From: an uncultured bacterium
GTDB taxonomy: Bacteria; Hydrothermota; UBA3073; NMUJ01; CBEVQO01
NCBI GenBank assembly: GCA_965552055.1
Contig: CBEVQO010000005.1
Location: forward strand, 13,373-77,372
Direction: 5' to 3'
Length of the DNA: 64,000 nt
Shown here: piece after piece, positions 704-51,430 of the stretch
Position numbering within the stretch: the stretch's first letter is position 1
Layout: each line of letters starts with the position of its first letter
Notes under the pieces: generated by a model
The model's input: only the letters and a program-made list of their open reading frames with translations
Database searches by the model: none
What the model was told of the DNA's origin: nothing
Program-made: the position numbers and the translations under genes

Positions 704-1051
704 TCAATAAATTTTAAACAAATGGGATTTACATCTACAATCAGATGAGCCAAAGTTTTCAACACAATCAAAATATTTTGCCAGATTTTGGGCAATTTTA
801 CATTCGAAAGATTTTTCATTTGTCTCAATACAAAAAGCACAGATAGGAACTGCTTTTCTCAAAAGGTAATCGATATGCCAGTGCAATTTCTTATCCCGTG
901 AAAAATGCCTTTTAATACGAGGAAATAAACCCTGTAATGCCGACCCCACATATACATAAAAACCTTTTTCAAAAAAGATTTCACCAAGTTTCCCTATTTT
1001 TATCCTCTGAGAGACAGGAAGCCAGATTAAAAGAGCATAAACGCCTTTTAT
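704..1051 (-). CDS. GIY-YIG nuclease-superfamily protein (DUF123-like); N-terminal boundary unresolved
   Basis: ORF-track entry 704..949 starts at GTG, but the same frame is open upstream to a stop at 1085-1087 and encodes ...KGVYALLIWLPVSQRIKIGKLGEIFFEKGFYVYVGSA... (GIY- and YIG-like strands). This is followed by HWHIDYL and a C-terminal Cys cluster (CVENFGSSDCRCKSH). No ATG/GTG/TTG lies upstream of the GVY motif. Confidence 0.45.
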   Translation of the reverse strand: MKGVYALLIWLPVSQRIKIGKLGEIFFEKGFYVYVGSALQGLFPRIKRHFSRDKKLHWHIDYLLRKAVPICAFCIETNEKSFECKIAQNLAKYFDCVENFGSSDCRCKSHLFKIY

Positions 1052-2364
1052 TTTTTCTCCTTTTTCCTCTTCATTATCACCGATTTACCGTATTTGAAAA
1101 GGTGTACAAGAGGACGATGGGCAGGACACTGGAAAGCACAGCATCCACATTCAATGCAGTCAAGCAAGCCCCATTCTTCTGCTTCATCAAATTTGCCTTT
1201 CTCAACAAAGTCAGCAATATAAACAGGAGTAAGATGCATCGGACAAACTTCAAGACAACATCCACATCTTATACAATTGGTTTCATGTGGTAGATATACA
1301 TTTTGAATACTTTGAACAAGAATACCAGATGTGCCTTTCACTACGGGTACTTCATCCGATGCCTGAGCTATACCCATCATGGGACCGCCCATTATCACTT
1401 TGCCCGGTGTGTCTATGTATCCTTCACAAAAATCAATCAAGTCTTTAAACAAAGTGCCAATTCTACAAATTAAATTTTTGGGATTTATAACATCACCTGT
1501 TACTGTGATAGCACGCTCGACAAGTGGCTTTCCATATTTGCATGCTTCATAAATCGCAATGCATGTGCCTACATTTTGCACATAACAGCCGATGTGAAAG
1601 GGAAGACCACCAGATGGCACCTCACGCCCAGTTATCGCTTTAATGAGCTGTTTTTCCGCACCCTGGGGATATTTTGTTTTCAAAACTTTTATTTCAAAGC
1701 CATCGTCTTCTTTCAATTCGTTTTCCATCACTTTTATTGCTTCTGGTTTATTATCTTCAATTGCTATGTAGCCTTTTTTTGCATTGAGAGCACGCATTAT
1801 GAGTTTGCCACCTTCGATGATTTCTCTTGGACGCTCAAGCATCAATCTGTAATCACAGGTAAGATAAGGCTCGCATTCACATCCATTTAAGATTACGATT
1901 TCAACGGGATATTCAGGTGGGGGAGAGAGTTTCACATGGGTGGGAAATGCAGCACCACCGAGACCAACGATACCTGCTTCTTTAACTGCCTCAACAATAT
2001 CTTTTGGCGAAAGTTTATCCGTATCTCTCTCTGTGAGGGAAATCCATTCATCTTTTTCATCGCTTTCGATTATGCACGATAAAACTTCCCGGCCAAGTAC
2101 GGGATGGGGATAGGGGGCAACATCTATCACTTTGCCAGATATTGTAGCGTGAATGTTAGCAGAGATAAATCCTTGCAGTTCACCTATTTTTTGACCTGTT
2201 TTAACTACATCGCCTTTTTTCACGAGTGGTTTGGCAGGTGCACCTGTATGCTGTGAGAATGGTATTACAACTTTCTTTGGCAGGGGTGCTTTCTCCAGTT
2301 TGCTGTCTTTTGTAATTTTACATTCTGGTGGATGGACACCTCCTTTAAATGATAGTTTACCCAT
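1048..2364 (-). CDS. RnfC-family FeS flavoprotein (SLBB / NADH-binding / two 4Fe-4S motifs), not in an rnf operon
   Basis: N-terminus MGKLSFKGGVHPPE and the block GAAFPTHVKL...ILNGCECEPYLTCDYRLM are RnfC-like. Two ferredoxin motifs CIRCGCCLEVCP and CIECGCCAFQCP. ORF track starts at GTG 2370; the ATG at 2362-2364 with GAGG 5 nt upstream is the more likely start. Confidence 0.7.
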   Translation of the reverse strand: MGKLSFKGGVHPPECKITKDSKLEKAPLPKKVVIPFSQHTGAPAKPLVKKGDVVKTGQKIGELQGFISANIHATISGKVIDVAPYPHPVLGREVLSCIIESDEKDEWISLTERDTDKLSPKDIVEAVKEAGIVGLGGAAFPTHVKLSPPPEYPVEIVILNGCECEPYLTCDYRLMLERPREIIEGGKLIMRALNAKKGYIAIEDNKPEAIKVMENELKEDDGFEIKVLKTKYPQGAEKQLIKAITGREVPSGGLPFHIGCYVQNVGTCIAIYEACKYGKPLVERAITVTGDVINPKNLICRIGTLFKDLIDFCEGYIDTPGKVIMGGPMMGIAQASDEVPVVKGTSGILVQSIQNVYLPHETNCIRCGCCLEVCPMHLTPVYIADFVEKGKFDEAEEWGLLDCIECGCCAFQCPAHRPLVHLFKYGKSVIMKRKKEKK

Positions 2365-2539: not shown

Positions 2540-3196
2540 CTAATATTCACCTTTGTGGTGTTTTATGACTTTGCCTTCTACCATAAATATCACATCTTCA
2601 CAGATGTTTGTAGATAAATCTCCTATGCGCTCTAATGCATGAGAAATTCTCAACAAATGCAGTGAGCGCTCGATGGTAGATGGGTCCGAACACATATAAG
2701 TAATTAGCTCTCTTAAAATCTGCTCACCTAAATTATCAACAATTTCATCACTCTGGCACACTATCCTGGCCTTCTCTGTATCTTCGTTTATAAAAGAATC
2801 TATGGCTTTCTTTAACATATTTGTGGCTTCTTCAGCCATCCTTGGAATATCAATTAATGGTTTGACAGGCGGTCTTTCTATCAAAAACATGGCACTTTGT
2901 GATATATTTACTGCTAAATCGCCGATCCTCTCTAAATCGTTATTCATTTTTAAAATCATAAGAATAGTTCTTAAATTTTTTGCCTCTGGCTGATACAGGG
3001 CGATTAAATTTGTGCATAATTCATCTAATTCTATCTCAAATTCATTCATCTTTGGTTCATATTCTTCTATTACTTCTTTTAAAATTTCTTTCCTTTTTTC
3101 AATAAGTCCTTTGATTGACTTTCTAACCATATCTTCAGCCAGTCCTGCCATCTCAATTAATTTCTTTTTTAATATATTGATTTTTTCTGCAAGCAT
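2540..3196 (-). CDS. phoU: Phosphate transport system regulator PhoU
   Basis: 218 aa with two repeated halves, each carrying LERIGD (LERIGDLAVNI, LERIGDLSTNI). Sits directly downstream of pstB. Confidence 0.85.
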   Translation of the reverse strand: MLAEKINILKKKLIEMAGLAEDMVRKSIKGLIEKRKEILKEVIEEYEPKMNEFEIELDELCTNLIALYQPEAKNLRTILMILKMNNDLERIGDLAVNISQSAMFLIERPPVKPLIDIPRMAEEATNMLKKAIDSFINEDTEKARIVCQSDEIVDNLGEQILRELITYMCSDPSTIERSLHLLRISHALERIGDLSTNICEDVIFMVEGKVIKHHKGEY

Positions 3197-3205
3197 ATCA
3201 CCTCC

Positions 3206-3961
3206 TTATCCAAATTTACCCATTAGATAATCTTCTGTACGCTTATCCCTGGGTCTTGTAAATACTTCTTCAGTTGGACCATATTCTATAAACTCTCCAT
3301 GCATAAGAAATGCTACATAGTCAGATACTCTTGCTGCTTGTTGAATATTGTGAGTTACGATAATTATTGTATATTTATTTTTCAAGTTTTCAAGTAATTC
3401 TTCGAGTTTCGCAGTAGCTATTGGGTCTAAAGCAGATGCAGGTTCATCAAGTAGTATTATTTCGGGCTCAACAGCCAGTGCCCTTGCTATACAAAGTCGT
3501 TGCTGCTGACCACCTGAAAGTGCGAGTGCAGAAGTATGTAATCTATCTTTAACTTCATCGAAAAGATTAGCATCTATCAGTGCCTTCTCAACCCTTTCCT
3601 GTAATTCTCTTTTATTTTTAACTCCATGAATTTTTAGTCCATATGCCACATTCTCAAATATTGATTTGGGTAAAGGATTGGGCTTCTGGAATACCATGCC
3701 TACTCGTTTGCGAAGCTCATACACATCGATGTCATCAGAATATATATCTTTGCCGTCAATAAGAATTTGTCCCTCTACTCTTGCATCATCAATTAAATCT
3801 ATCATTCGGTTGATGCATCTTAGAAAAGTAGATTTACCACAGCCAGATGGTCCCATTATCGCAGTTATCTTATTTTCCTTTATAGATATGTTATTATTAA
3901 CCAAAACATGTTTATCCCCGTACCATACATTTAAATTCTTAACGATTATTTTGTCTACCAT
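3206..3961 (-). CDS. pstB: Phosphate ABC transporter ATP-binding protein PstB
   Basis: Walker [13 protein letters not shown] signature [15 protein letters not shown], Walker [13 protein letters not shown]. Position within pstSCAB order. Confidence 0.9.
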
Positions 3962-4800
3962 TTCTTTCTTCTTCTTTTTATTCTTATTAGTATAGCTGTT
4001 AAGTTTATTCCCACAACGAGTATAAGGAGCACAAGAGCAGTTCCGTAAGCGATAGGCACCTGCAAATCGGGTTTCGTTCCTTCTGTCATCAATGCATAAA
4101 TATGGTAGGGTAATGCCATTACTTCATCGAATATTGACCTTGGTAATCTTCTTGTATAAAAAGTAGCGGCTGTGAATAAAATAGGTGCTGTTTCACCTGC
4201 TGCTCGCCCTATCCCGAGTATAACACCTGTTAATATACCGGGCATAGCATTGGGAAGGACAACATGGGTTATCGTTTGCCATTTTGTCGCACCCAGTGCA
4301 TAAGATGCCTCCATGAATGTTTGAGGCACAGTAAGAATAGCCTCTTCACTTGCTCTTATTATCGTGGGTAATATAAGCATCCCTAATGTCAGTGCTCCTG
4401 CAAGGATTGATACTCCAAATTTAAACAATTTTACAAAAACCGCAAGTCCAAAAAGCCCAAATACAACAGAAGGCGTACCGGCGAGTGTATTTATGCCTAT
4501 TCTTATAATTCTTGTTAGTTTAGATGATTTCGCGTATTCGGTTAGATAAACGGCACTCAAAACCCCTAAGGGTAAGGCAAAAAGTATCGCACCTACAGAA
4601 AGATAAAGTGTACCAATAATAGCAGGGAAAATGCCTCCTTTTGTCATGCCTTCTCTCGGGAAGTCAAAAATAAAATTTAAACTCAAAACTTTAAATCCAC
4701 GAATAAAGATAAAAAAGAGTATTATAAAAAGAGAAAGAACCGCTATCAAGCATGCAAACCTGCACATCAAAAAACCTATATTTTGTTTAAATCTTCTCAT
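3955..4800 (-). CDS. pstA: Phosphate ABC transporter permease PstA
   Basis: Multi-pass permease with ABC transmembrane-domain signature region; sits between pstC and pstB. Confidence 0.8.
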
Positions 4801-5656
4801 AACCTTTTTCTTTTATGTAATTTGCCAAAATATTTAATCCCAGAGTTATTAAAAACAGTATTATGCTGATAGCGAATAGTGCGTGATAATGGGGACTTCC
4901 TACGGGTGCTTCTCCCATTTCTGCTGCAATAGTCGCTGTCATAGGTCTAACGGGTTGTAAGAATGAATGCGGGATGACCGCTGCACCTCCTGCAACCATA
5001 AGCACAGTCATTGTCTCACCTATTGCCCTGCCAAGACCCAGAATAATGGCTCCTAAAATTCCTGATTTCGCAGAGGGTATGATTGCTCGCGTTAGCGTCT
5101 CCCATTTGGTTGCTCCCAATGCATATGATGCCTCTTTTATTTCTTTTGGAACAGATGCTATAGCATCTTCTGCTATGCTGGTAATCGTTGGTAGTGCCAT
5201 AATTCCAAGAAGACAAGACGCAGTAAAGGCGTTCAATCCCACAGGTATTTTAAAAAGCTTTTGTACAAATGGTGCAAAAACTACCATACCAAAGAAACCG
5301 TATATTACAGAAGGTATGCCCGCAAGAAGTTCTATCATCGGCTTTATAATTTCTCTAATTTTTGGATGACTCAATTCAGATATATATATTGCCGTGCCTA
5401 TTCCAAGTGGAACGGCTACCATCATTGCACCAAAAGTAACAATAAGTGAAGCCAGAATGAGTGGTAATATGCCGAACTCAGGTGGCTCATGGGTAGGATA
5501 CCAGAACTTACCGAAAATGAATTTTACAGGATTTACTATTTTAAAAATTGGGAGTCCTTCTTTGAACAAAGAAATAGCAATTCCAAATAGAAAGATAATT
5601 GATAAAGAGGCACAGAAGCGAAGCATATATTCGATGAATTTTTCCTTCTTCAACAT
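4787..5656 (-). CDS. pstC: Phosphate ABC transporter permease PstC
   Basis: Multi-pass permease following pstS. ORF track begins at 5713, overlapping pstS by 44 nt; the internal ATG at 5654-5656 (MLKKEKF...) avoids the overlap and has a weak AAGAG upstream. Confidence 0.75.
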   Translation of the reverse strand: MLKKEKFIEYMLRFCASLSIIFLFGIAISLFKEGLPIFKIVNPVKFIFGKFWYPTHEPPEFGILPLILASLIVTFGAMMVAVPLGIGTAIYISELSHPKIREIIKPMIELLAGIPSVIYGFFGMVVFAPFVQKLFKIPVGLNAFTASCLLGIMALPTITSIAEDAIASVPKEIKEASYALGATKWETLTRAIIPSAKSGILGAIILGLGRAIGETMTVLMVAGGAAVIPHSFLQPVRPMTATIAAEMGEAPVGSPHYHALFAISIILFLITLGLNILANYIKEKGYEKI

Positions 5657-5669
5657 TTTATCACTCTTA

Positions 5670-6506
5670 TCATTCATCTGTCGGCTTAACAGGAACAAAT
5701 CCAGCTTCTTCAACTATCTTTTGTCCTTCTGGGTTCAGAACGAAATCAATAAACTCCTTCGCTAAGCCCTTTGGTTTTCCGTCCGTATAAAAATAAAGCG
5801 GTCTTGAGAGTTTGTATTCCCCTGATGCTACTGTCTTTTTAGTAGGCTTTACTCCATCAACTGTGAGTGCTTTAACTTTTGATGAAACATATCCGAGTCC
5901 CACATATCCTATAGCGCCAGGTGTCTTTTCCACAGTTGTAGCAACTGCCTTATTTGATGCTAGCATAAGCGCATCTGCTCTCGTCTTTGCACCTTTTAAA
6001 ACCAGTTTTTTAAAAACTTCAAATGTGCCTGATGCTACATCTCTCGATATCACCACAATTCTGCCGGATTTACCGCCTACATCTTTCCAGTTGCTTATCT
6101 TACCGGTATAAATATCTCTTAATTGTGCCATAGTTATTTCTGACAGCGGGTTAGATGGATGCACGATAATAGCTATACCATCGCGTGCAATTACAGTAGC
6201 TACGGGATTTATACCTTTACTCCTTGCGGATTTAAGTTCTTTTGTTTTCATTGGTCTTGATGCCATAGCAATATCGCATGTTCCGTCAATAAGAGCAGCA
6301 ATACCAACACCAGAGCCACCTCCTCTTACACTTATATCCACATCAGGATGCTGTTCCATGAATTTTTCAGCGCATAATTGAGCGATTGGAAGTACTGTCG
6401 TTGAGCCAGTCAGCGTGAGAGTTTTTTTAGCGAATGCTGTCTCATACATGAGCACCTGTGCAGATATTACACCTGCACATACTATATTTTTGACCCATCC
6501 CTTCAT
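5670..6506 (-). CDS. pstS: Phosphate-binding protein PstS (periplasmic substrate-binding)
   Basis: Signal peptide, then TLTLTGSTTVLPIAQ...VRGGGSGVGIAALIDGTCDIAMASRPMK typical of PstS-family binding proteins. First gene of the pstSCAB block. Confidence 0.8.
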   Translation of the reverse strand: MKGWVKNIVCAGVISAQVLMYETAFAKKTLTLTGSTTVLPIAQLCAEKFMEQHPDVDISVRGGGSGVGIAALIDGTCDIAMASRPMKTKELKSARSKGINPVATVIARDGIAIIVHPSNPLSEITMAQLRDIYTGKISNWKDVGGKSGRIVVISRDVASGTFEVFKKLVLKGAKTRADALMLASNKAVATTVEKTPGAIGYVGLGYVSSKVKALTVDGVKPTKKTVASGEYKLSRPLYFYTDGKPKGLAKEFIDFVLNPEGQKIVEEAGFVPVKPTDE

Positions 6507-10499: not shown

Positions 10500-11176
10500 T
10501 CTTCTATTTTGTAGCCTATTCCTCTTACGCTTTTTATAAATTTCTTGGCTTTGCCTAATTTTTCTCTTAAATTCTTAATATGGACATCTACTGTCCTATC
10601 CAGAACAACTTTATCAATTCCCCATAATTTATCCAGAATCTGGTCCCTTGTAAATACCCAGCCTTTTCTTTCTGCCAGTATTTTTAGAATCCTGAATTCC
10701 GTTGGAGTTAAGTCCACTTTTTTATTTTCAACAAAGACTTCATATTTATTGAGGTCTATTACGAGGATATCACCTATTTTAATCTTTTTGCAGGTATCAT
10801 GCGGTGCTTTCCTTCTTAAGACTGCTTTTACTCTGGCAACTAACTCCCTTGGTGAGAAGGGCTTTGTCACATAATCATCTGCTCCCAGTTCCAGACCCAA
10901 AACTTTATCTGCTTCGGTAGTGCGTGCGGTAAGCATAATGATAGGAATAGATTTAAATTCATCTTTTGATTTTAGATACTTACAAACCTCAAAGCCATCC
11001 ATATCAGGAAGCATGAGATCCAAAATTATAAGGTCAGGTATCTGTGAGGATAAAAATTCGAAGAAATCTTCAGCATTCTGAAAGCATTTAACTTTAAAAC
11101 CATGCTTAGTGAGATGTAAAGATACAAGCTCTAAAATATCAGGCTCATCATCTATCACAGCTATTAATTCATTCAT
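10496..11176 (-). CDS. OmpR/PhoB-family response regulator (PhoB-like)
   Basis: Receiver domain (DDEPDIL, LDLMLPDMDGFEV, conserved Lys in YVTKPF) plus winged-helix output (LTPTEFRILKILAERKGWVFTRDQI). First gene of the phosphate cluster. Confidence 0.85.
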   Translation of the reverse strand: MNELIAVIDDEPDILELVSLHLTKHGFKVKCFQNAEDFFEFLSSQIPDLIILDLMLPDMDGFEVCKYLKSKDEFKSIPIIMLTARTTEADKVLGLELGADDYVTKPFSPRELVARVKAVLRRKAPHDTCKKIKIGDILVIDLNKYEVFVENKKVDLTPTEFRILKILAERKGWVFTRDQILDKLWGIDKVVLDRTVDVHIKNLREKLGKAKKFIKSVRGIGYKIEE

Positions 11177-11188
11177 CGCATTTCTCTA

Positions 11189-11215
11189 AACTTATTCAAT
11201 ATACAGGTATGTCAA
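11189..11215 (-). promoter_or_regulatory. sigma70-like promoter (TTGACA-N15-TAAGTT) for the Pho cluster; near-leaderless
   Basis: Minus-strand TTGACA 11215-11210 and TAAGTT 11194-11189. The ATG at 11176 lies about 12 nt after the -10 with no SD. Block is near-identical to 2372-2416. Confidence 0.45.
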
Positions 11216-11217
11216 CA

Positions 11218-11296
11218 ATTTTTAGCCCACCTCCCTATCCCCACCTCCCTATCCCCACCCCACAACCCATTGGTAATTAGCTCGCTTACGCTCGCA
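11218..11296 (-). repeat. Intergenic GC/G-tract-rich repeat, copy 2 (internal 14-bp tandem duplication)
   Basis: atttttagcccacctccctatccccacctccctatccccaccccacaacccattggtaattagctcgcttacgctcgca. Tandem 14-mer acctccctatcccc at 11229-11242 and 11243-11256. Lacks the hairpin block seen in copies 1 and 4. Confidence 0.5.
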
Positions 11297-11303
11297 TTTT
11301 TAC

Positions 11304-11331
11304 TTGACATCCTTAAAGATAAAATTATAAT
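11304..11331 (+). promoter_or_regulatory. sigma70-like promoter (TTGACA-N16-TATAAT) for the restriction-modification operon
   Basis: TTGACA 11304-11309 and TATAAT 11326-11331. The ATG at 11340 lies about 8 nt after the -10, so the AGGAG directly abutting the ATG is probably not a functional SD and the mRNA is likely leaderless. Confidence 0.5.
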
Positions 11332-11339
11332 TAAAGGAG

Positions 11340-12041
11340 ATGAATCTAAAGGAAGTTCAAAATAGACTTCAAGAAATTAAAAATAAAGGATTTGTGCCAT
11401 CTTTAAGAAGAGGAACAACAGGAATTGGATACACCTTTGAGATACTTTTTGGAATAAAGGAAAACAATATCCCAATCCCAGACATCGGCGGAAGAGTTGA
11501 AATTAAAACAATAAGAAGAGATTCGCAATCTTTAATAACATTATTTACTTTTAATAGAGGCGTCTGGCATATAAAGCAAAAAGAACTAATCAAAAAATAT
11601 GGATATGTTGATAAAAAGGGTAGATATGCATTAAAAAATACGGTTTTTTATGGCAAATCCATTCCACAAGGAATATCATTAGAAGTAGATGAAGATAAAA
11701 ACACTATTCATTTAGTTGATACGAATACAAAGAAAGTCCTTGCAACATGGGATGTTTATGTCATTGTCGGTATATTTATGACAAAATTGAGCAAATTATT
11801 ACTCGTAATAGCTGATAGAAAGAAAGAGAAAGGTAAAGAATATTTTCACTACAATGAAGCTTACCTTTTGACAGATCCCAGTGCTCGAAATTTTATAAAA
11901 GCATTTAAAAATTCCCTAATAGGCATTGATATTAGAATGCATCTAAAAGAAAGCGGAGAAGTTAGAAATAGAGGAACTGCATTCCGTATAAAAGAAAAGG
12001 ATTTATTAGAACTTTATGAAAATCGCAAGAAACTTATTTAA
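11340..12041 (+). CDS. Putative type II restriction endonuclease, MutH/MvaI/BcnI-like PD-ExK fold
   Basis: 233 aa with a candidate PD...ExK active site (IPIPDIGGRVEIKT) in a MutH-like arrangement. Stop is 2 nt before the SPPY methyltransferase gene. Confidence 0.5.
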   Translation: MNLKEVQNRLQEIKNKGFVPSLRRGTTGIGYTFEILFGIKENNIPIPDIGGRVEIKTIRRDSQSLITLFTFNRGVWHIKQKELIKKYGYVDKKGRYALKNTVFYGKSIPQGISLEVDEDKNTIHLVDTNTKKVLATWDVYVIVGIFMTKLSKLLLVIADRKKEKGKEYFHYNEAYLLTDPSARNFIKAFKNSLIGIDIRMHLKESGEVRNRGTAFRIKEKDLLELYENRKKLI

Positions 12042-19261: not shown

Positions 19262-20818
<1,557 letters not shown>

Positions 20819-20851
20819 TTTCTCTCCGGGCAGCACACTTTATTTTTTTAT

Positions 20852-20923
<72 letters not shown>

Positions 20924-20924
20924 T

Positions 20925-20996
20925 GGGGATGTAGCTCAGTGGGAGAGCGCCTGCTTTGCAAGCAGGAGGTCAGGGGTTCGAATCCCCTCATCTCCA
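20925..20996 (+). tRNA. tRNA-Ala (anticodon TGC)
   Basis: Acceptor GGGGAUG/CAUCUCC with G3:U70, anticodon loop UUUGCAA, T-loop GGTTCGAAT. Separated from tRNA-Ile by 1 nt. CCA not encoded. Confidence 0.9.
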
Positions 20997-21040
20997 TGGG
21001 AAGCGATTTAGTTCTTTGACAATCAAGGCAGATGAGCATC

Positions 21041-24047
<3,007 letters not shown>

Positions 24048-24087
24048 GATGCTCATCTGCCTACTTTGTAATTAACCTGTTTTTAAC

Positions 24088-43216: not shown

Positions 43217-46200
43217 ATGAGGTGGTTAATTTTTATGTTTTTAACTGCAAATCTGTGGGGGGCTGAATACTGGTGGAGGATTGAGGTCGTTGATTCTGGG
43301 GTTCAGCGTGGTCAATATACAAGTGTTGTTCTTGATGATAGTGGTAGACCCTGGATTTCTTATTATGATGCCAATAATGGGTGGTTGATGTGTGCGCACT
43401 GGACAGGGACTGCATGGGATATTGATACGGTTGATGATAGTGGCAATGTTGGTATGTATTCGAATATTGCTCTTGATAAAGCAGGTTATCCTCATATCGT
43501 TTACTTTGATGATGGGAATACAAGGTTAAAGCATGCGTGGTGGACTGGTGCTTTTTGGAAAACAGAGACCGTGAATGACCCTAACTCAAATGATTATGGA
43601 TACTGGTGCGATATTGCTATAGATTCTTTAAATCGCATCTGGGTATCGTACTATGATGCTGATAACAAAAGGCTTATGTGTGCACGCAAAGTAGGAGCTG
43701 TGTGGGATACTATTTATATCGTAGTTGAAGCATTTGGACCTCCGGTCGGGGAATACTCATCAATTTGTATTGATACATCTAATAATCCCCATATATCCTA
43801 TTATCATCAGATTAATGGGTTATCTCATGCATGGTGGGATGGTTCAAAATGGCAGGCTCAGCAGGTTGATTTTGCAGGCGGTTATTACACAAGCATAATT
43901 GCAAGCGAATGTGATACACTGCATATATCTTATTACAATCCTTCTTCGCGGGATTTAAAATATGCGAAAGGTTATTATTCTTCGGGTAGCTGGGGATGGA
44001 CGACGCAGGTAGTTGATACACAGGGAGATGTTGGCAAATGGACGAGCATAGCTGTCTGTGGAAATTCACCTCATATATCCTATTATGATGCTACAAATTT
44101 ATGTCTCAAATATGCACATTTTGAGAATGGTAGCTGGGAGATAGAAGTTGTTGATTCGCCGAAAGTCGGTGAATACACATCAATTGCACTTGATACAAAT
44201 GGCTTACCCTGTATATCCTATTATGACGGAGGTAGTGAATGGCTTAAATTTGCAAGATTGCTTATAAGACCAGAGGTTGATTCAACTTCACCTCTTCATA
44301 ATGAAGTTAATGTATCGCGTGCAACTCAGATAAATGTCTGGTTCTCAAAGGATATTGAATCTGCAACAATAAATAGTGCGAGTTTTAAAGTAATTGGTTC
44401 ACAATCGGGTGAAAGGAAGGGCACGATAACTTACGATTCTAATGAACGCAAAGCAACTTTTACATTGAATGCAGGTGAAACTTTCTATACCGGTGAGAAG
44501 GTGACAGTAATTTTAACAGATTCTATTAAGTCAGTGGATGGTGCACCACTTGTGCCTTATGTGTTTGAATTTACGATAAAGGCAGCCGAAGGGATTGCAG
44601 AGTTTAGTAATGAGGTAAGGTATAGTGTATTGGGTACGCCTGTTGATATAGAGGTTTGTGACCTTGACCTTGATGGTGACCCAGACATTGTTACGCTTTC
44701 ACAGGATACGATAATGATATGGCGTAATGATGTTGATAGTCTGGTACCTGTGGATACTATTCCCTCGCCTTCTTCACAGTACTGCATTGCGATATTAGAC
44801 CTTGATTTGGATGGTTTACCTGATATTGTGGTTGATTCAACTCCATCGAGTGCTCCTTATAGTATAAAGTTTTACAAAAATCAAGGTGGATTGAATTTCG
44901 CCTGGGGTTTTCGTTGTCAAACTGCTTATGGTGTAACAGATATGTTTGTGTCTGACTTTGATGGAGATGGCGACTTTGATATTGCTGCACTGGAATTAAC
45001 TCAGGTTGAGATTCTTTTAAATGAAGGATTTTTTAATTTTACATCGAGTGATACGATTGACCTTACATTTTCGCACAATAAATTATATGGTGCTGATTAT
45101 AATAATGATGGGTTGATTGACCTTGCTGTTACTGCCGCAGCGGGCACTCCCGGTTATGATGTTCTTGCAAATGAAGGTGAAGGCAAATTTAAGCACATTG
45201 GAACAATAACTTTAAGTCAGGGTGTTAAGGATATTATTGCATCTGATTTCGACAATGATTACAATGCGGATAATGCTTTGACGGGCGATGATACACTTAT
45301 TATTTCAGAAGGCAATGGTGATTTTAGTTTTGCACCGGAAGATGATTATGTTGCTACTGGTTCAAATTTTCTTACTTCCGGTGATTTTGATGCAGATGGT
45401 GATATAGACCTTGCGGTTAGTGGGAATGTTACAGGTGGTGATACTTTATTTATATTTTTGAATGATAATGCTAGTTTTGATTCTGTTCACAAATTTTCTG
45501 CAACTGCGATAGAAAGAATTGTGAGTGCAGATTTTAACCTTGATAGCACAATTGATATTGCATCTATTCATTCTGGTGGAATATTATCAATATTTTACAA
45601 TACGCCCGATACATTTCCACCTCCGCCTCCTGAAAGTTTAACTGCAAATGGTGGTTCTCCCTCTCCATGGGATTCCAGTGCTCGATTTGTAATTGACTGG
45701 ATAAATCCTAATGACCCATCGGGGATACTTTTTGCCAATTATAAGATAGGTTCGAGACCTGTGAGTGACTGGGATACAACAGGTCATATGTCTGCACCGT
45801 ATACTCATCCCAAAGATACGATTTACTGGAAAGGGGAAGGGATAGATACATTGTGGGTGTGGCTTGTTGATGGTAACCTTAACACCTCGAAAGATTCTGT
45901 TTCATTTGTGCTTTTAAGAAGGGATACAACACCTCCTCCTGAGCCACAAAAGATTTCTCCATCTGATGGAATATGGGTTGATAGTGCAAGGATAAAATTT
46001 ATGTGGCATTCTGTTGTTGATTCTCTATCAGGGACAATGAGTTATGGGATAGTGCTTGAATATGATGATGTAATAGGTCCTCCTTATATTAGAACAGCGG
46101 GCGATTTGAGTGGCACAACTTACTTTTATACATGTCCTGAGACTGCTGTTTACTGGAGAGTATTTGCAAAGGATTCGGCAACAAACAGGAGTCCGCAATC

Positions 46201-49200
46201 ATTCTGGTGTGTAAAAATAGACACAACTCCTCCAAATAAATTTTATGTTATTTCTCCCGATGGTGTATGGTTGAGGAAACCTCCTTATACATTTATCTGG
46301 CATAGTGCAAAAGACCACTGGTCAGGTGTTGAAAGTTATAAATTGAGAGTGTGGAGAGAAGGTTTTGCTGCTAGCAATTGGTCCGGTATAACTGATACCT
46401 CTTACATTGTGTTTGGTTTGCCTGGTTTTGCCGAAACTACATACTGGTGGTGTGTTATAGCGTATGATTCTGCTGGAAATTATGTGTATAGTGATACAGG
46501 GATTTTCTGGACAGATACTACAATTTTGCCGCCTTCTAATCTCACGATAAATGGTAAAAATCCGAACGACTGGACCAATGATAGTGTATTTACATTGAAC
46601 TGGACAAATCCTTCTGATTATTCCGGTATCGTTAGAGCATTATATAAGATTGGCAATAGACCTTCTTCTGATTATGATACAACTGGTTCTCTCACAGGAA
46701 TTCCTCCTGTAAGTATTATCTGGCGGGATGAAGGTGTAGAAACATTATGGCTGTGGCTCGAAGATAAGGCAGGTAATGTTGATTACACAAAAAATGCATT
46801 TGCAATAATAAGAAGGGATATAACTCCGCCTCAATCTTTTACTCAGATTTCACCTGTAAATAATTTCTGGCTAAATACCATTAATCCTCGCCTTATATGG
46901 CACAGCACTATGGATACTTTGTCGGGCTTGGCTTATTATACGATAAATGTTGATACAGTTCAAACATTTTCAACGAAAATAATTTGTGATACTGTTTCGG
47001 ATACCATTTACAATGCAAATCTATTTGAAGACGCGTTTTACTGGTATGTTGAGGCATGGGATTCTGCTGGTAATGTATGTTCTACTTTTGTGTGGAATTT
47101 CAAAATAGATACAACCCATCCTCCCAAACCTGTTTTAATATCTCCTCCTGATGGCTCATGGAACGGCAAATATGCTCATTTTGTATGGCATAAAGTTGAA
47201 GATTACTGGTCTGGTCTAGCTGCTTATCGCTTAAACATTGATACGAATGCTTTGATGCCAAATCCTCTGACATTTTCACTTACAGATACAGAGACAACAA
47301 TTGTGCTTACTCATGAAGGCAAAACTTATTACTGGATGGTGGAAGCTGAAGATTCGGCATTTAATATATCGCAAAGTTTGGTATGGACTTTCAAACTTGA
47401 CACAACAGTTCTTGCACCGATTAATTTAATTGCAAATGATAGTTCTCCGTCACCGTGGCAAAGGAGTTCTATGTTTGTTATTAACTGGCAAAATCCATCT
47501 GATTCCGCTGGAATAAAGTTTGCATTATACAAACTTGGCACAGGACCCAGTAATAACTGGGATACCACAGGTACGATGCATTTACCACCCGATACGATTT
47601 ACTGGCAGGGCGAGGGCAAAGAAACTTTATGGGTATGGCTTTGCGATAGTGCAGGCAATGTTAATTACCATAATCGCTCTTTTGTGTTGTTAAGAAGAGA
47701 TACAACTCCTCCTTTTGCATTTTCAAAAATAAGACCCCAGGATAATGCGTGGATAAGGGTTGTTAAGCCTTCTCTTATCTGGCATAGCACTCAAGATTCT
47801 CTATCGGGTCTGAGGATTTATCGTGTTGCTGTAGATAAAGATATGACTCCTCCTTTTATGATTGATTTTGTTTTGCGAGGTACTCTATATGTTACACCCC
47901 ATTTACCTGAGACGATACTTTACTGGGCAGTCGTAGCAGTTGATTCTGCAGGTAACTTTAAAGAAGCTGATGCGGATACAAAAGTATGGTGGAAGATGAA
48001 AATAGATACAACTCCTCCTGATACAGTCCATCCAGTTTATCCTGTATCTAATCAATGGACGAGAGGTGGATTTATGTGGCGTAGTGCTAAAGATTACTGG
48101 TCAGGGATTAGATTTTATCATTTTGTGATAGATACAGTTTATCCATTCACTCCCAGTCCCATAAAGGATACAGTTTGCAGGGATACCGTGATATTTATCA
48201 AAGGACTTTCTGAGCGGAATTATTACTGGAAAGTTGTAGCATTAGATTCTGCTTTTAATGGAGGTGCTGGTGTTGTTCATCAATGTCGAGTTGATACCAC
48301 GCCACCGGATAGCGTTAAATTAATCTCTCCTGAGAACCTTTCTTACACGAATGATATACATTCTGTATTTACATGGGATACAGGCTATGATGCGCGTTCA
48401 GGTGTTATGGGCTATATTTTCTGGGATTCTTCACTTGCATATGGTGAAAAAATTGATACTCTTATCTTAGGCGTATTTAACACATCTTATAAGCCTTTAA
48501 AAGGTTTAAAGGAGGGCTGGCATTGCTGGGCAGTTGTAGCAATGGATTCAGCCTACAATGTTAGTGATGGTCATTATCCTTATTCTGTGCATTTGTTATG
48601 TGTGGATACTACTCCTCCTGAGTCCGCAATTGCAACTTCGCCTCTTTATGTTGATAGCCTTGTATTTGTTGTGCAATGGAGTAAAGGTAAAGATACTTTA
48701 TCGGGCATCACAGATACTTATAAATTGAGATATTCTACAGATTTAGTTTCATGGTATGATACGGCTGTTACGGGTACCGCATTTATTTTCAAAGGAGAAG
48801 ACCAGACAAAATATTACTTTGAGGTGCTTTCTCGGGATTATGCTGGCAATTTTGAGCGCATCACAGGAGTGCCTGAATGCTCAACCTATGTTGATACTAC
48901 ACCGCCTCAGCAGGTTCAGTTAATCTCACCTGAAGGCTGGATTAAAGAATTATCACCTGTTTTAATATGGCACAAAGCAAATGACTTTACAGGGATAGCA
49001 GAATATTATGTGCAGCTAAGTAAAGATATGGGTTTCGATACCATTATTTTTTCGGATACCGTTGCAGATACATTTGCGGTGGTAGGTTTAAATTTAATGG
49101 AAAATGTTAAGTACTACTGGCGAGTTAGGGCAAAAGACAACGCAGGCAATGTAAACATGTGGTCAGGTTATAATATGTTTAAAGTGGATACATCATCGCC

Positions 49201-51430
49201 GCAAATACCTGAACTTGTAAGTCCTCTAAATGATACTCCAGTAACAACGGTTGATGATACTTTGACACTTATATGGAGGGCATCTTACGATGAGCTTTCT
49301 GGTATTTATGCTTATCAGGTGCAGATAAGCGAAGTTCCTGATTTCTCATCGCTTATACTTGATACTATTTTGTATCATCCTGATACTATATTGAGGTATC
49401 CAAGAGAATTAAATGAAATTAAGCATTATTGGCGAGTATTTGCGATAGATAGTGTCTGGAATGTTAGCGATGGACATAAAGGGACATTTATGGTTGACAA
49501 TACCGCGCCTGTACTTGTTCATAAGTATCCTGACCTGAATGACACGGTTGACCCGCGTATAAAAATAGAAATTGCATTTTCTGAAAAAGTAGACCCCAAA
49601 ACGGTTGATACTCTCTCCTTCTGTTTATATATGGAAGCAGAAAAAGTGAGAGGAAATGTTTATCAACATCCAGCTATAGAGACATTGTTTTACTTTGAGC
49701 CTAAAGAAAATCTTGAACCCAACACCAAATATCTTGTTGTTGTTTCAACAAAAGATAAAAAAGTTAAAGATATTGCAGGTAATAAGATGTCGATGGTGAG
49801 CTGGAGTTTTTACACTGCAGGCAGTGCTGATAATATGCCTCCGGATGTTAAGGAAATAAAAACTTATCCCGAAGTTACTTATGGTGCGCCTTATGTAGTT
49901 ATAAAAGCATTGCTAAAGGATGATATTTCGCGCATTAAATATGCTGAATATTTCGTTGATTCAGTGGGTTCACCTGGTACGGGCGATGCAATGATGCCAC
50001 TCGATGGTGCGTTTGATAGCAAAGAAGAGTGGGTGATAGATACTCTATTCACTAAAGATTATAGTGGCACTTTGAGGATATTTATTCAGGGTAAGGATGA
50101 ATGGGACAACTGGAGTGATGCAGTTAAATCGAAGATAATAGTATGTCCTCCCGATACAATACCTCCGCTTTTTGATATAATGGTTAATGGAAGCCGAGAA
50201 GATACACTTCAGGTGACAGATACTATTGTAGTGAGAACTAAATCTTCGGAAATTATAAATCCCGATTATCCCGTAGTATGCACTTTGAAATACAATTCCA
50301 CAGTTATTGCACAAACTATGAAGAGAGAAGATAGTGTTACCTATACTGTGCAATTTGTAATTACACATCCTCCTTTGACAGAATATGATGTTAAAGTGCT
50401 TGGTTACGATTATGGATGGCATTGGGATACTTTGAAGGATAGCATTGTAAGTATGCCAAATCTCGGTGTCAACGAAAAGCATTTTATACTTTATGACTTT
50501 GAATCACCCAGTATAATCTCATTTACATTAAAACCAGAGACCCTTGAAATAACGGATAAACTAAATGTGGAGATTACAATAAAAGATAATTATGAGCTTA
50601 AAGAAGTTAGATTTTATTTTGACTCCGACACCGTACCTGTGGAAACGATTTCATTGAGTGGCAGGGATACTTCTTTAACAACGAACATACCTGTTAGTGG
50701 TTTGACTCCTGCCTCTTCCCATATATTGCGTGCCCTTGCATCTGATATATGTGATAATATTAGCCCTGAAGTTTCTGCTGGCTTTTATATCAGAGAACTC
50801 GATGTCATACCACCTGTTTTGATGCTTCAGAGACCGGATACATTTTATCTTGGAGATTCCGTTTTAATAGTAGCAATCGCGAGCGAGAAATTGTCAAGAG
50901 ATTCAATTCCGGTTTGTTTGATAAAAGGCTTAAGAGGTAATGATACTTTGATAGATACTTTAAAGATGACTTTTGTGGATGATTCTACCTGTCAGACGAA
51001 ATACAGGGTTCAGGGTTTAAATCTGGGAGTTGCTTACATTGATGTATATGCTTATGATGAAGCAGGCAACCTTGGACTCGTTGAAGATTCGGTTTACATC
51101 AGTAAGAGAGGAAGATTATTTGACCCAAGGAGAGATGTGTTCCCGTTTCCTAATCCTGTTAGAAAATCCAACGAGGTGTATTTCCATATTTATGTGAATC
51201 AAAATGCCTATGTTGATATAAGAATTTATACGATAGAAGGTCGTCTTGTTAAGAGATTAGAAAGAATATTTGTAGAAGGAGGTCGTCCGAAATACAGCTG
51301 GGAGGCAAATGTAATTAAGGTTGACATTTCTAAATTAAAAACAGGATTATATTATGCCAAGATTACGATAAGGAGTCTGGATGGGAAAGAAAAACAGAGT
51401 TGCACCAAGAGATTTGTGGTGATAAAGTAA
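43217..51430 (+). CDS. Giant (2737 aa) modular secreted surface protein: N-terminal propeller-like repeats, FG-GAP/VCBS-like repeats, at least ten Ig/FN3-like modules, T9SS C-terminal sorting domain
   Basis: Signal peptide; about seven ~45-aa repeats (G.YTSIALD..G.PHISYYD....LKYA); DxDxDG repeats (DLDLDGDPDIV, DFDGDGDFDIA, DFDADGDIDLA); ~100-aa modules separated by (K/R)(I/V)DTTPP linkers, each with YW.V.A.D.AGN; tail FPFPNPV...IRIYTIEGRLV...KRFVVIK. Confidence 0.75.
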   Translation: MRWLIFMFLTANLWGAEYWWRIEVVDSGVQRGQYTSVVLDDSGRPWISYYDANNGWLMCAHWTGTAWDIDTVDDSGNVGMYSNIALDKAGYPHIVYFDDGNTRLKHAWWTGAFWKTETVNDPNSNDYGYWCDIAIDSLNRIWVSYYDADNKRLMCARKVGAVWDTIYIVVEAFGPPVGEYSSICIDTSNNPHISYYHQINGLSHAWWDGSKWQAQQVDFAGGYYTSIIASECDTLHISYYNPSSRDLKYAKGYYSSGSWGWTTQVVDTQGDVGKWTSIAVCGNSPHISYYDATNLCLKYAHFENGSWEIEVVDSPKVGEYTSIALDTNGLPCISYYDGGSEWLKFARLLIRPEVDSTSPLHNEVNVSRATQINVWFSKDIESATINSASFKVIGSQSGERKGTITYDSNERKATFTLNAGETFYTGEKVTVILTDSIKSVDGAPLVPYVFEFTIKAAEGIAEFSNEVRYSVLGTPVDIEVCDLDLDGDPDIVTLSQDTIMIWRNDVDSLVPVDTIPSPSSQYCIAILDLDLDGLPDIVVDSTPSSAPYSIKFYKNQGGLNFAWGFRCQTAYGVTDMFVSDFDGDGDFDIAALELTQVEILLNEGFFNFTSSDTIDLTFSHNKLYGADYNNDGLIDLAVTAAAGTPGYDVLANEGEGKFKHIGTITLSQGVKDIIASDFDNDYNADNALTGDDTLIISEGNGDFSFAPEDDYVATGSNFLTSGDFDADGDIDLAVSGNVTGGDTLFIFLNDNASFDSVHKFSATAIERIVSADFNLDSTIDIASIHSGGILSIFYNTPDTFPPPPPESLTANGGSPSPWDSSARFVIDWINPNDPSGILFANYKIGSRPVSDWDTTGHMSAPYTHPKDTIYWKGEGIDTLWVWLVDGNLNTSKDSVSFVLLRRDTTPPPEPQKISPSDGIWVDSARIKFMWHSVVDSLSGTMSYGIVLEYDDVIGPPYIRTAGDLSGTTYFYTCPETAVYWRVFAKDSATNRSPQSFWCVKIDTTPPNKFYVISPDGVWLRKPPYTFIWHSAKDHWSGVESYKLRVWREGFAASNWSGITDTSYIVFGLPGFAETTYWWCVIAYDSAGNYVYSDTGIFWTDTTILPPSNLTINGKNPNDWTNDSVFTLNWTNPSDYSGIVRALYKIGNRPSSDYDTTGSLTGIPPVSIIWRDEGVETLWLWLEDKAGNVDYTKNAFAIIRRDITPPQSFTQISPVNNFWLNTINPRLIWHSTMDTLSGLAYYTINVDTVQTFSTKIICDTVSDTIYNANLFEDAFYWYVEAWDSAGNVCSTFVWNFKIDTTHPPKPVLISPPDGSWNGKYAHFVWHKVEDYWSGLAAYRLNIDTNALMPNPLTFSLTDTETTIVLTHEGKTYYWMVEAEDSAFNISQSLVWTFKLDTTVLAPINLIANDSSPSPWQRSSMFVINWQNPSDSAGIKFALYKLGTGPSNNWDTTGTMHLPPDTIYWQGEGKETLWVWLCDSAGNVNYHNRSFVLLRRDTTPPFAFSKIRPQDNAWIRVVKPSLIWHSTQDSLSGLRIYRVAVDKDMTPPFMIDFVLRGTLYVTPHLPETILYWAVVAVDSAGNFKEADADTKVWWKMKIDTTPPDTVHPVYPVSNQWTRGGFMWRSAKDYWSGIRFYHFVIDTVYPFTPSPIKDTVCRDTVIFIKGLSERNYYWKVVALDSAFNGGAGVVHQCRVDTTPPDSVKLISPENLSYTNDIHSVFTWDTGYDARSGVMGYIFWDSSLAYGEKIDTLILGVFNTSYKPLKGLKEGWHCWAVVAMDSAYNVSDGHYPYSVHLLCVDTTPPESAIATSPLYVDSLVFVVQWSKGKDTLSGITDTYKLRYSTDLVSWYDTAVTGTAFIFKGEDQTKYYFEVLSRDYAGNFERITGVPECSTYVDTTPPQQVQLISPEGWIKELSPVLIWHKANDFTGIAEYYVQLSKDMGFDTIIFSDTVADTFAVVGLNLMENVKYYWRVRAKDNAGNVNMWSGYNMFKVDTSSPQIPELVSPLNDTPVTTVDDTLTLIWRASYDELSGIYAYQVQISEVPDFSSLILDTILYHPDTILRYPRELNEIKHYWRVFAIDSVWNVSDGHKGTFMVDNTAPVLVHKYPDLNDTVDPRIKIEIAFSEKVDPKTVDTLSFCLYMEAEKVRGNVYQHPAIETLFYFEPKENLEPNTKYLVVVSTKDKKVKDIAGNKMSMVSWSFYTAGSADNMPPDVKEIKTYPEVTYGAPYVVIKALLKDDISRIKYAEYFVDSVGSPGTGDAMMPLDGAFDSKEEWVIDTLFTKDYSGTLRIFIQGKDEWDNWSDAVKSKIIVCPPDTIPPLFDIMVNGSREDTLQVTDTIVVRTKSSEIINPDYPVVCTLKYNSTVIAQTMKREDSVTYTVQFVITHPPLTEYDVKVLGYDYGWHWDTLKDSIVSMPNLGVNEKHFILYDFESPSIISFTLKPETLEITDKLNVEITIKDNYELKEVRFYFDSDTVPVETISLSGRDTSLTTNIPVSGLTPASSHILRALASDICDNISPEVSAGFYIRELDVIPPVLMLQRPDTFYLGDSVLIVAIASEKLSRDSIPVCLIKGLRGNDTLIDTLKMTFVDDSTCQTKYRVQGLNLGVAYIDVYAYDEAGNLGLVEDSVYISKRGRLFDPRRDVFPFPNPVRKSNEVYFHIYVNQNAYVDIRIYTIEGRLVKRLERIFVEGGRPKYSWEANVIKVDISKLKTGLYYAKITIRSLDGKEKQSCTKRFVVIK

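Follow-up and report, generated by a model that had tools for sequence, protein, structure and literature searches.

In E. coli reporters AUA initiates translation at 1-2% of the level of AUG, in common with AUC, AUU and CUG (bioRxiv 10.1101/063800), while an AUG-to-AUA mutant of T4 rIIB retained about 15% of its translation and a phage hydrolase 7.5% (PMC5499595). Natural AUA starts have been mapped by retapamulin Ribo-seq at infC, ccpN and citZ of S. aureus, where extended Shine-Dalgarno (SD) sequences accompany an output of about 10-30% of AUG (PMC13009471). A non-canonical AUN start is likewise found at E. coli infC, where a conserved AUU serves the autoregulation of IF3 and expression is low or regulated (PMC5499595). 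A second group of relevant systems comprises co-directional gene pairs that overlap by the four nucleotides ATGA, with an intragenic SD in the tail of the upstream gene (PMC6728339, PMC10666635, PMC12548453). Such overlaps support termination-reinitiation coupling (PMC6728339), with reinitiation enhanced by SD motifs and reduced by over-expression of IF3 (PMC2268962). In the literature on overlapping pairs no report of reinitiation at AUA was found.

The locus described here lies in a window of 64,000 nucleotides, the whole stretch of DNA analysed, from an uncultured bacterium. It carries a reading frame of the DUF123 family (PF01986) that has no canonical start codon at the N-terminus expected from its homologues. 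We regard it as probable, though well short of certain, that this is a functional 'Uri' endonuclease-like gene translated from the near-cognate codon AUA, with an extended SD and overlap-coupling to the upstream gene rnfC aiding initiation, a reading drawn from sequence and its comparison.

The DUF123 frame is read from the minus strand and directly follows rnfC (Table 1), whose product is identified by TIGR01945 (563.6 bits) and by the Pfam domains RnfC_N, Complex1_51K and Fer4 and has a basic C-terminal tail of normal length when set against homologues. The frame is open from the upstream TAA, 12 codons before the ATA, down to the TGA, and its translation between these stops reads IGDNEEEKGEK-IKGVYALLIWLPVSQRIKIGKLGEIFFEKGFYVYVGSA...HLFKIY. 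It holds no ATG, GTG or TTG before codon 35, a GTG that would open an ORF of 81 amino acids, and the only near-cognate codons 5′ of that GTG are ATC at 1084-1082 and the ATA at 1051-1049. By rough estimate 45 codons free of ATG, GTG and TTG will occur by chance in about 10% of cases, which is unremarkable alone, and it is because of homology, not because of the chance rarity of such an open stretch, that the missing canonical start is a real case. The first-pass annotation had placed this frame correctly in all its coordinates, as minus-strand reading and translation confirmed, and was right that no canonical start lies upstream of the conserved N-terminal motif and that the ATA overlaps the stop codon of rnfC with a GGAG upstream, the GGAG falling at 1060-1057, 5 nt before the ATA.

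Table 1. Coordinates of the features at the rnfC-DUF123 junction in the window.
Feature	Position	Strand	Details
DUF123 / GIY-YIG-superfamily coding frame	704..1051	minus	115 codons from ATA (1051 to 707) plus stop TGA 706-704
ATA, proposed near-cognate initiation codon	1049..1051	minus	at the Met1 position of homologues; also in L130 and L131
Extended Shine-Dalgarno AAAAAGGAG	1057..1065	minus	within the rnfC tail; 5-nt spacer to ATA
rnfC stop TAA	1048..1050	minus	overlaps the ATA, giving ATAA (1051-1048)
rnfC	1048..2364	minus	438 aa from ATG 2364; alternative GTG/ATG at 2370/2367
First canonical in-frame start, GTG (codon 35)	947..949	minus	inside the YVYVGSA strand
In-frame TAA closing the DUF123 frame upstream	1085..1087	minus	from sequence and translation

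The protein encoded from the ATA matches Pfam DUF123 over profile positions 3-94 of 95, scoring 99.8 bits (E=1.2e-28) where the cutoff is 25. A protein database search gave 229 DUF123 homologues, mostly archaeal and at most 59% identical to the window protein, which their sources name 'GIY-YIG nuclease family' or 'Uri superfamily endonuclease'. All 21 columns that are invariant in a 47-sequence alignment (A2) are kept in the window protein, the residues being Y5, G20, G30, Y32, Y34, G36, S37, R45, W58, H59, D61, Y62, E83 and those of the motif FG.SDC.C..HL. An AlphaFold model built on that alignment (pLDDT 95.4) places strands at residues 3-11, 15-19, 23-27 and 30-38, followed by helices, and the predicted fold is GIY-YIG-like, being closest to I-TevI, UvrC-N and T4 EndoII; KGVYALLI is labelled the 'GIY' strand and YVYVGSA the 'YIG' strand by their resemblance to I-TevI. 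No match of the window protein to the Pfam GIY-YIG profile (PF01541) was seen at E<=10; two homologues (P0021 and P0032) exceeded the profile's cutoff of 22.6 bits, scoring 27.1 and 27.9, and the profile aligns to homologues only from about residue 25 on. The DUF123 protein gave no match in the PDB, whether by Foldseek or by sequence, neither PADLOC nor NCBIfam holds a model matching it, and the DUF123 papers listed in a literature search yielded no experimental data for the family, nuclease activity included. ATA codons inside the gene align with Ile of the homologues (as in RIKIG) and the standard genetic code is therefore in use; an alternative code in which AUA specifies Met was rejected on the same ground.

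Most homologues begin MKG-x-Y-x-L-x-I, and in both alignments (A1 and A2) their Met falls exactly on the window ATA, which is where alignment to the family, the check proposed in the first-pass annotation, places the expected Met1. To this was added a census in which the codon equivalent to Met1 was extrapolated across GTDB genomes and JGI metagenomes, about 125 homologous loci in all, the two scans serving the census only and giving a best DUF123 identity of 58% for genome contigs and 57% for metagenome contigs. A canonical start stands at the Met1-equivalent codon in 89 of the about 125 loci (ATG in 72, GTG in 12 and TTG in 5), while in 34 loci a canonical start lies a few codons upstream or the domain is fused to an upstream SfsA domain. 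Two flagged exceptions proved to be extrapolation artefacts of frameshifted HSPs, and among these loci the window lineage is the sole one without a canonical start. A second ATA was considered at one locus (L104), where the corresponding codon, preceded by a G-run, is also ATA; an ATG lies 11 codons upstream of it, however, and the case is not decisive. The ATC at 1084-1082 of the window was rejected as a start, having no SD and lying 11 codons before the family N-terminus.

Upstream of the ATA, AAAAAGGAG can pair over 7-9 bp with the 3′ tail of the 16S rRNA (...CACCUCCUUUUUU / ...GGAUCACCUCCUUUUUU / CCUCCUUUUUU), making this a strong, extended SD, of a motif that is not rare by chance in this genome. 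AGGAGG or GGAGG, 4-5 nt ahead of the ATG, is typical of genes in the window. As regards chance, AGGAG-N4-7-ATA occurs 19 times in the window and AAAGGAG 36 times, counting both strands of an A/G-rich genome, and the SD before the ATA alone is thus weak evidence, supportive only together with the Met1 alignment. Elsewhere in the window co-directional genes overlap by 4 nt as ATGA four times and as GTGA once; the ATAA of the rnfC-DUF123 junction has the same geometry and is one transition away from ATGA, a transition that leaves rnfC with a stop. No promoter- or terminator-like site was found between rnfC and the DUF123 gene, a TTGACA-17-TACTAT site overlapping the DUF123 stop codon upstream of the ATPase gene, and RNA folding at the junction gave no structure beyond that of shuffled sequences (MFE -19 kcal/mol, z=+0.61). 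The upstream rnfC is probably the deliverer of ribosomes to the junction.

No close relative of the DUF123 protein was found in any collection searched, and relatives of the locus were reached through RnfC. An RnfC 98% identical to that of the window (P0121) has a 90% cluster of four members, two of which (P0241 and P0243) are identical to the window RnfC, while the other two led to the assemblies L130 (GCA_964419125.1, NCBI) and L131 (ERZ27248328, ENA). Both share the gene order of the window, in which pst, phoU and rnfC are followed by 395 bp with no called gene and then the ATPase gene, and both are 98.6-98.7% identical to it (about 1.3% diverged), with differences between the two at 18 of 4279 positions. 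In each, ATA stands at the corresponding position and the frame, of 114 codons, is intact, so that the ATA is present in three of three assemblies, and the window differs from L130 and L131 also at flanking bases. The AAGGAG of the SD is kept in both, with one A-to-G change in the spacer. The DUF123 frame is absent from the gene calls of both assemblies, which shows that annotation pipelines skip the gene, probably because gene callers take only ATG, GTG and TTG. The three genomes form a single shallow clade, diverged by about 1.4% at most, and the age of the ATA is demonstrated no further back than that. Relatives of intermediate distance were absent from the databases searched, the next RnfC being 65% identical and having no DUF123 gene, and an exact-protein look-up of the window PstB returned no record.

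Between the window and these two assemblies the DUF123 frame differs by 5-6 synonymous changes, by two conservative replacements in variable columns (E24K and R106K) and by a 3-nt deletion that stays in frame and turns FP into S, with all substitutions being transitions. The resulting pN/pS of 0.10 and 0.084 (range 0.08-0.10) compares with 0.095 for rnfC, 0.093 for pstB, 0.08-0.12 for phoU and 0.07-0.11 for the ATPase gene. Under an equal-rates model the binomial probability is P=0.005 for 5 of 7 substitutions being synonymous and 0.001 for 6 of 8, and under a neutral model of transitions only, in which 34% are synonymous, these become P=0.049 and 0.022. The pattern is consistent with purifying selection such as acts on a coding gene, in a signal that comes from only 7-8 substitutions within a shallow clade. 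The first 34 codons hold a single change in 102 nt, which is non-synonymous, against an expectation of about 7-9 from the local synonymous rate (P ~0.002-0.006, or P=0.19 at the lower rate of the pst genes), and this segment is conserved without a clear coding signature of its own.

These counts bear most directly on the explanation that the frame is a young pseudogene, in which an ATG became ATA in a recent ancestor of the three genomes and the protein was lost, with decay not yet begun. The frame has no canonical start and goes uncalled by gene callers in L130 and L131, the divergence is shallow (about 1.3%), AUA initiates poorly in E. coli, at 1-2% of AUG (bioRxiv 10.1101/063800), and the gene looks like a lineage-specific acquisition which the nearest RnfC relatives do not have, all of which would suit a pseudogene. 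However, the frame has the same pN/pS, about 0.1, as the essential-type genes beside it, its one indel leaves the frame unshifted, the two conservative replacements affect variable columns, and no invariant residue is lost. Neither a disrupted frame nor relaxed selection, the marks by which a pseudogene would be recognised, was found in the three intact frames, with small substitution counts and hence limited power. A young pseudogene is on this evidence unlikely, although it deserves to be taken seriously. Both readings had been put forward in the first-pass annotation. Its pseudogene branch, by start-codon mutation, is disfavoured, within the reach of small substitution counts; its other branch, non-AUG initiation or termination-reinitiation, is favoured by the persistence of the ATA in all three assemblies, by the long SD, by an overlap of ATGA type and by the low pN/pS.

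Lys-rich A-runs are classic shifty sites, as in the A AAA AAG of dnaX. A programmed -1 frameshift in the last codons of rnfC, at G AAA AAG (1066-1060) or G AAA AAA (1057-1051), would produce an RnfC-DUF123 fusion that needs no start codon, and the DUF123 frame is indeed offset by -1 from that of rnfC and stays open over the 11 codons that precede the ATA, with Lys A-runs present and G AAA AAG conserved in L130 and L131. Neither heptamer, however, fits X XXY YYZ perfectly, L130 and L131 have an interrupted A6 run ahead of the stop (GAG AAG AAA TAA) and no downstream stimulatory structure is predicted (z=+0.61 for the junction). Moreover, the upstream in-frame stop is only 12 codons before the ATA, fusions among the about 125 DUF123 loci are to SfsA and never to RnfC, and it would be an unexplained coincidence that an ATA with an SD before it occupies precisely the Met1 position, an arrangement not needed for a fusion. 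Frameshifting is accordingly a very improbable source of the protein. It is just as doubtful that the AUA is a selected mode of expression, be it as a weak restart codon tying a tiny output to RnfC translation or with a -1 slip at G AAA AAG yielding an RnfC-GIY-YIG fusion.

A start at the GTG, the sole ATG, GTG or TTG in the frame, would give a truncated protein of 81 amino acids. It would take away the 34 upstream codons that hold the invariant residues Y5, G20, G30, Y32 and Y34 and, as judged from model and alignment, would lose the first three predicted strands and truncate the fourth, in agreement with the loss of the first beta-strands that had been foreseen in the first-pass annotation. 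There is no SD before this GTG, the 102 nt upstream are highly conserved and homologues truly beginning at the equivalent position, which that annotation had named as counter-evidence to its reading, were absent from both alignments and census. The one homologue that seemed N-terminally truncated (P0102) was set aside as a mis-called start with an in-frame GTG upstream. We hold so short a product to be highly unlikely. Least credible of all is a sequencing or assembly error with a true base G (ATG), for although the base lies in an A-rich, homopolymer-like context, the same ATA stands in three assemblies of different records that are 1.3% apart, flanking bases included, no genes are broken in the rest of the window and, because the independent L130 and L131 also carry ATA and not ATG, an error private to the window, a concern that had called for re-checking in reads, is excluded.

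Translation from the AUA would be accounted for as follows. The DUF123 start and the rnfC stop would once have overlapped as ATGA, and a G-to-A transition would have made this ATAA, keeping the stop of rnfC (TGA to TAA) while turning ATG into ATA. The DUF123 gene would be co-transcribed with rnfC, and fMet-tRNA would be set on the AUA either by ribosomes that have terminated at the UAA of rnfC or by free 30S subunits bound through the SD over 7-9 bp. Full-length protein beginning Met-Lys-Gly-Val-Tyr, with the free N-terminus (f)MKGVYALLIWLPVSQRIKIGKLGE, would then be made at a low level, which for a protein of this putative nuclease family may be tolerated or even useful. The mechanism proposed is fully precedented, since natural AUA starts, coupling overlaps and SD-aided reinitiation have all been published.

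Among described systems the locus is most like the AUA starts of S. aureus infC, ccpN and citZ and of B. subtilis ccpN (PMC13009471), in which AUA also occupies the start position and an extended SD at short spacing compensates for it. The output expected here would likewise be a fraction of that from AUG, as with the about 10-30% in the reporters for these Firmicutes genes (those of S. aureus in the NCTC 8325 lineage), and at S. aureus citZ the AUG-to-AUA change is lineage-restricted, as is the one proposed for the window DUF123 gene. Unlike the Firmicutes starts, which were mapped by Ribo-seq and reporters, the window AUA is inferred from sequence only; it also lies inside a 4-nt overlap with an upstream stop, is conserved within a clade that is at most 1.4% diverged, and belongs to an uncultured, probably thermophilic bacterium with an RnfC nearest to WOR-3/Stahlbacteria. 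With the ATGA coupled pairs (PMC6728339, PMC10666635, PMC12548453) the junction shares co-directional genes, a 4-nt overlap and an intragenic SD in the tail of the upstream gene, whereas the overlap here is ATAA, the restart codon is near-cognate and rnfC with a nuclease-like DUF123 gene is not an obvious functional pair. The likeness to E. coli infC (PMC5499595) extends to the AUN start, but the window DUF123 protein is unrelated to translation and a regulatory loop has no support here. Within its own family (DUF123/COG 'Uri superfamily endonuclease'), which it matches at full length, the gene stands apart, its relatives being mostly from archaea or other bacterial phyla with at most 59% identity, some of them SfsA-fused and none located behind rnfC.

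As to the host, the window contains an rRNA operon (19266-24049) whose GC is high while that of the genome is about 36%, a contrast that suggests a thermophile, and this operon and two tRNAs are the only Rfam matches in the window. Beyond its own cluster the window RnfC has its nearest matches, at about 60-65% identity, in WOR-3/Stahlbacteria. In the window rnfC stands alone, the next-nearest rnfC is followed by GAPDH and not by DUF123 and the nearest DUF123 homologues sit in unrelated gene contexts, so that the rnfC-DUF123 junction is lineage-specific.

An AUA-started DUF123 gene would be a rare but known phenomenon and not a new kind of biology. The locus nonetheless presents an apparently functional gene that is missing from the gene calls of both related assemblies and for which the protein database holds no homologue above 59% identity. 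It also illustrates how an ATGA overlap constrains evolution, in that G-to-A is the one change that destroys the start yet keeps the upstream stop. If confirmed, initiation at this AUA would extend natural AUA starts with an extended SD from the Firmicutes to a deep-branching, uncultured and apparently thermophilic bacterium.

The rnfC gene that precedes the DUF123 gene stands alone downstream of pstSCAB-phoU, with rnfDGEAB absent behind it at this locus. Likewise, the rnfC of L132, the locus carrying the next-nearest homologue (65% identical), is solitary and is followed by a GAPDH gene. Upstream of the window rnfC lies a stretch of approximately 150 nt that is nearly duplicated 5′ of a PhoB-like response-regulator gene, the two regions having in common the core TTGACATACCTGTATATTGAWTAAGTTTA preceded on its 5′ side by the G-rich GGTGGGGATAGGGAGG, with an extra insert of approximately 35 nt in the rnfC copy. 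Given this near-duplication, the pho/pst cluster and rnfC, together with the DUF123 gene that follows rnfC, may be under common regulation.

Coordinates of the features discussed (window positions unless a locus is named)
Feature	Position	Strand	Remark
Archaeal-type ATPase gene	1-650; full length in L130, 11712-12818	minus (window)	next after DUF123
rnfC	1048-2370	minus	stand-alone, after pstSCAB-phoU
Near-duplicate region, rnfC	2365-2545	minus	
Near-duplicate region, PhoB-like response regulator	11170-11345	minus	
rRNA operon	19266-24049		16S, tRNA-Ile GAT, tRNA-Ala TGC, 23S
DUF123 homologue	L104, 609-1043		JGI metagenome; ATA at Met1-equivalent codon

Comparison with the closely related loci L130 and L131 revealed synonymous divergence of 0.09-0.10 in rnfC (window 1048-2364) and 0.07-0.085 in DUF123 compared with 0.02-0.036 in the pst/phoU genes (window 2540-5713), an unevenness that suggests recombination within this population.

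The ATPase gene following DUF123 encodes a 368-aa product with PF01637 ATPase_2 and an MCM-like winged helix, matching the PADLOC candidate defence family PDC-S01 weakly (E=3e-12). At 707-679, a promoter-like site (TTGACA-17-TACTAT) extends over the stop codon of DUF123.

Elsewhere in the window, the GC content of the rRNA operon (~61%) is well above that of the genome (~36%), which is a thermophile-like signature, and the 16S 3′ tail carries a U-run of unusual length, CCUCCUUUUUU. A single ORF of 2737 aa (43217-51430, plus strand) has AGGAGG 5 nt before its ATG.

Among the DUF123 homologues, the L104 gene has GGGGGGAAG immediately 5′ of its ATA and an ATG 11 codons upstream that lacks an obvious SD; here ATG may have changed to ATA independently, for a second time within the family. 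In five further loci (L042, L051, L065, L076 and L077), all from bacteria (Thermodesulfovibrio, Nitrospiraceae, Acetomicrobium, Syntrophomonadaceae and a deltaproteobacterial MAG), a complete SfsA protein, comprising an OB domain and a restriction-endonuclease-like domain, carries DUF123 fused at its C-terminus, and these fusions hint at a nucleic-acid function common to SfsA and DUF123.
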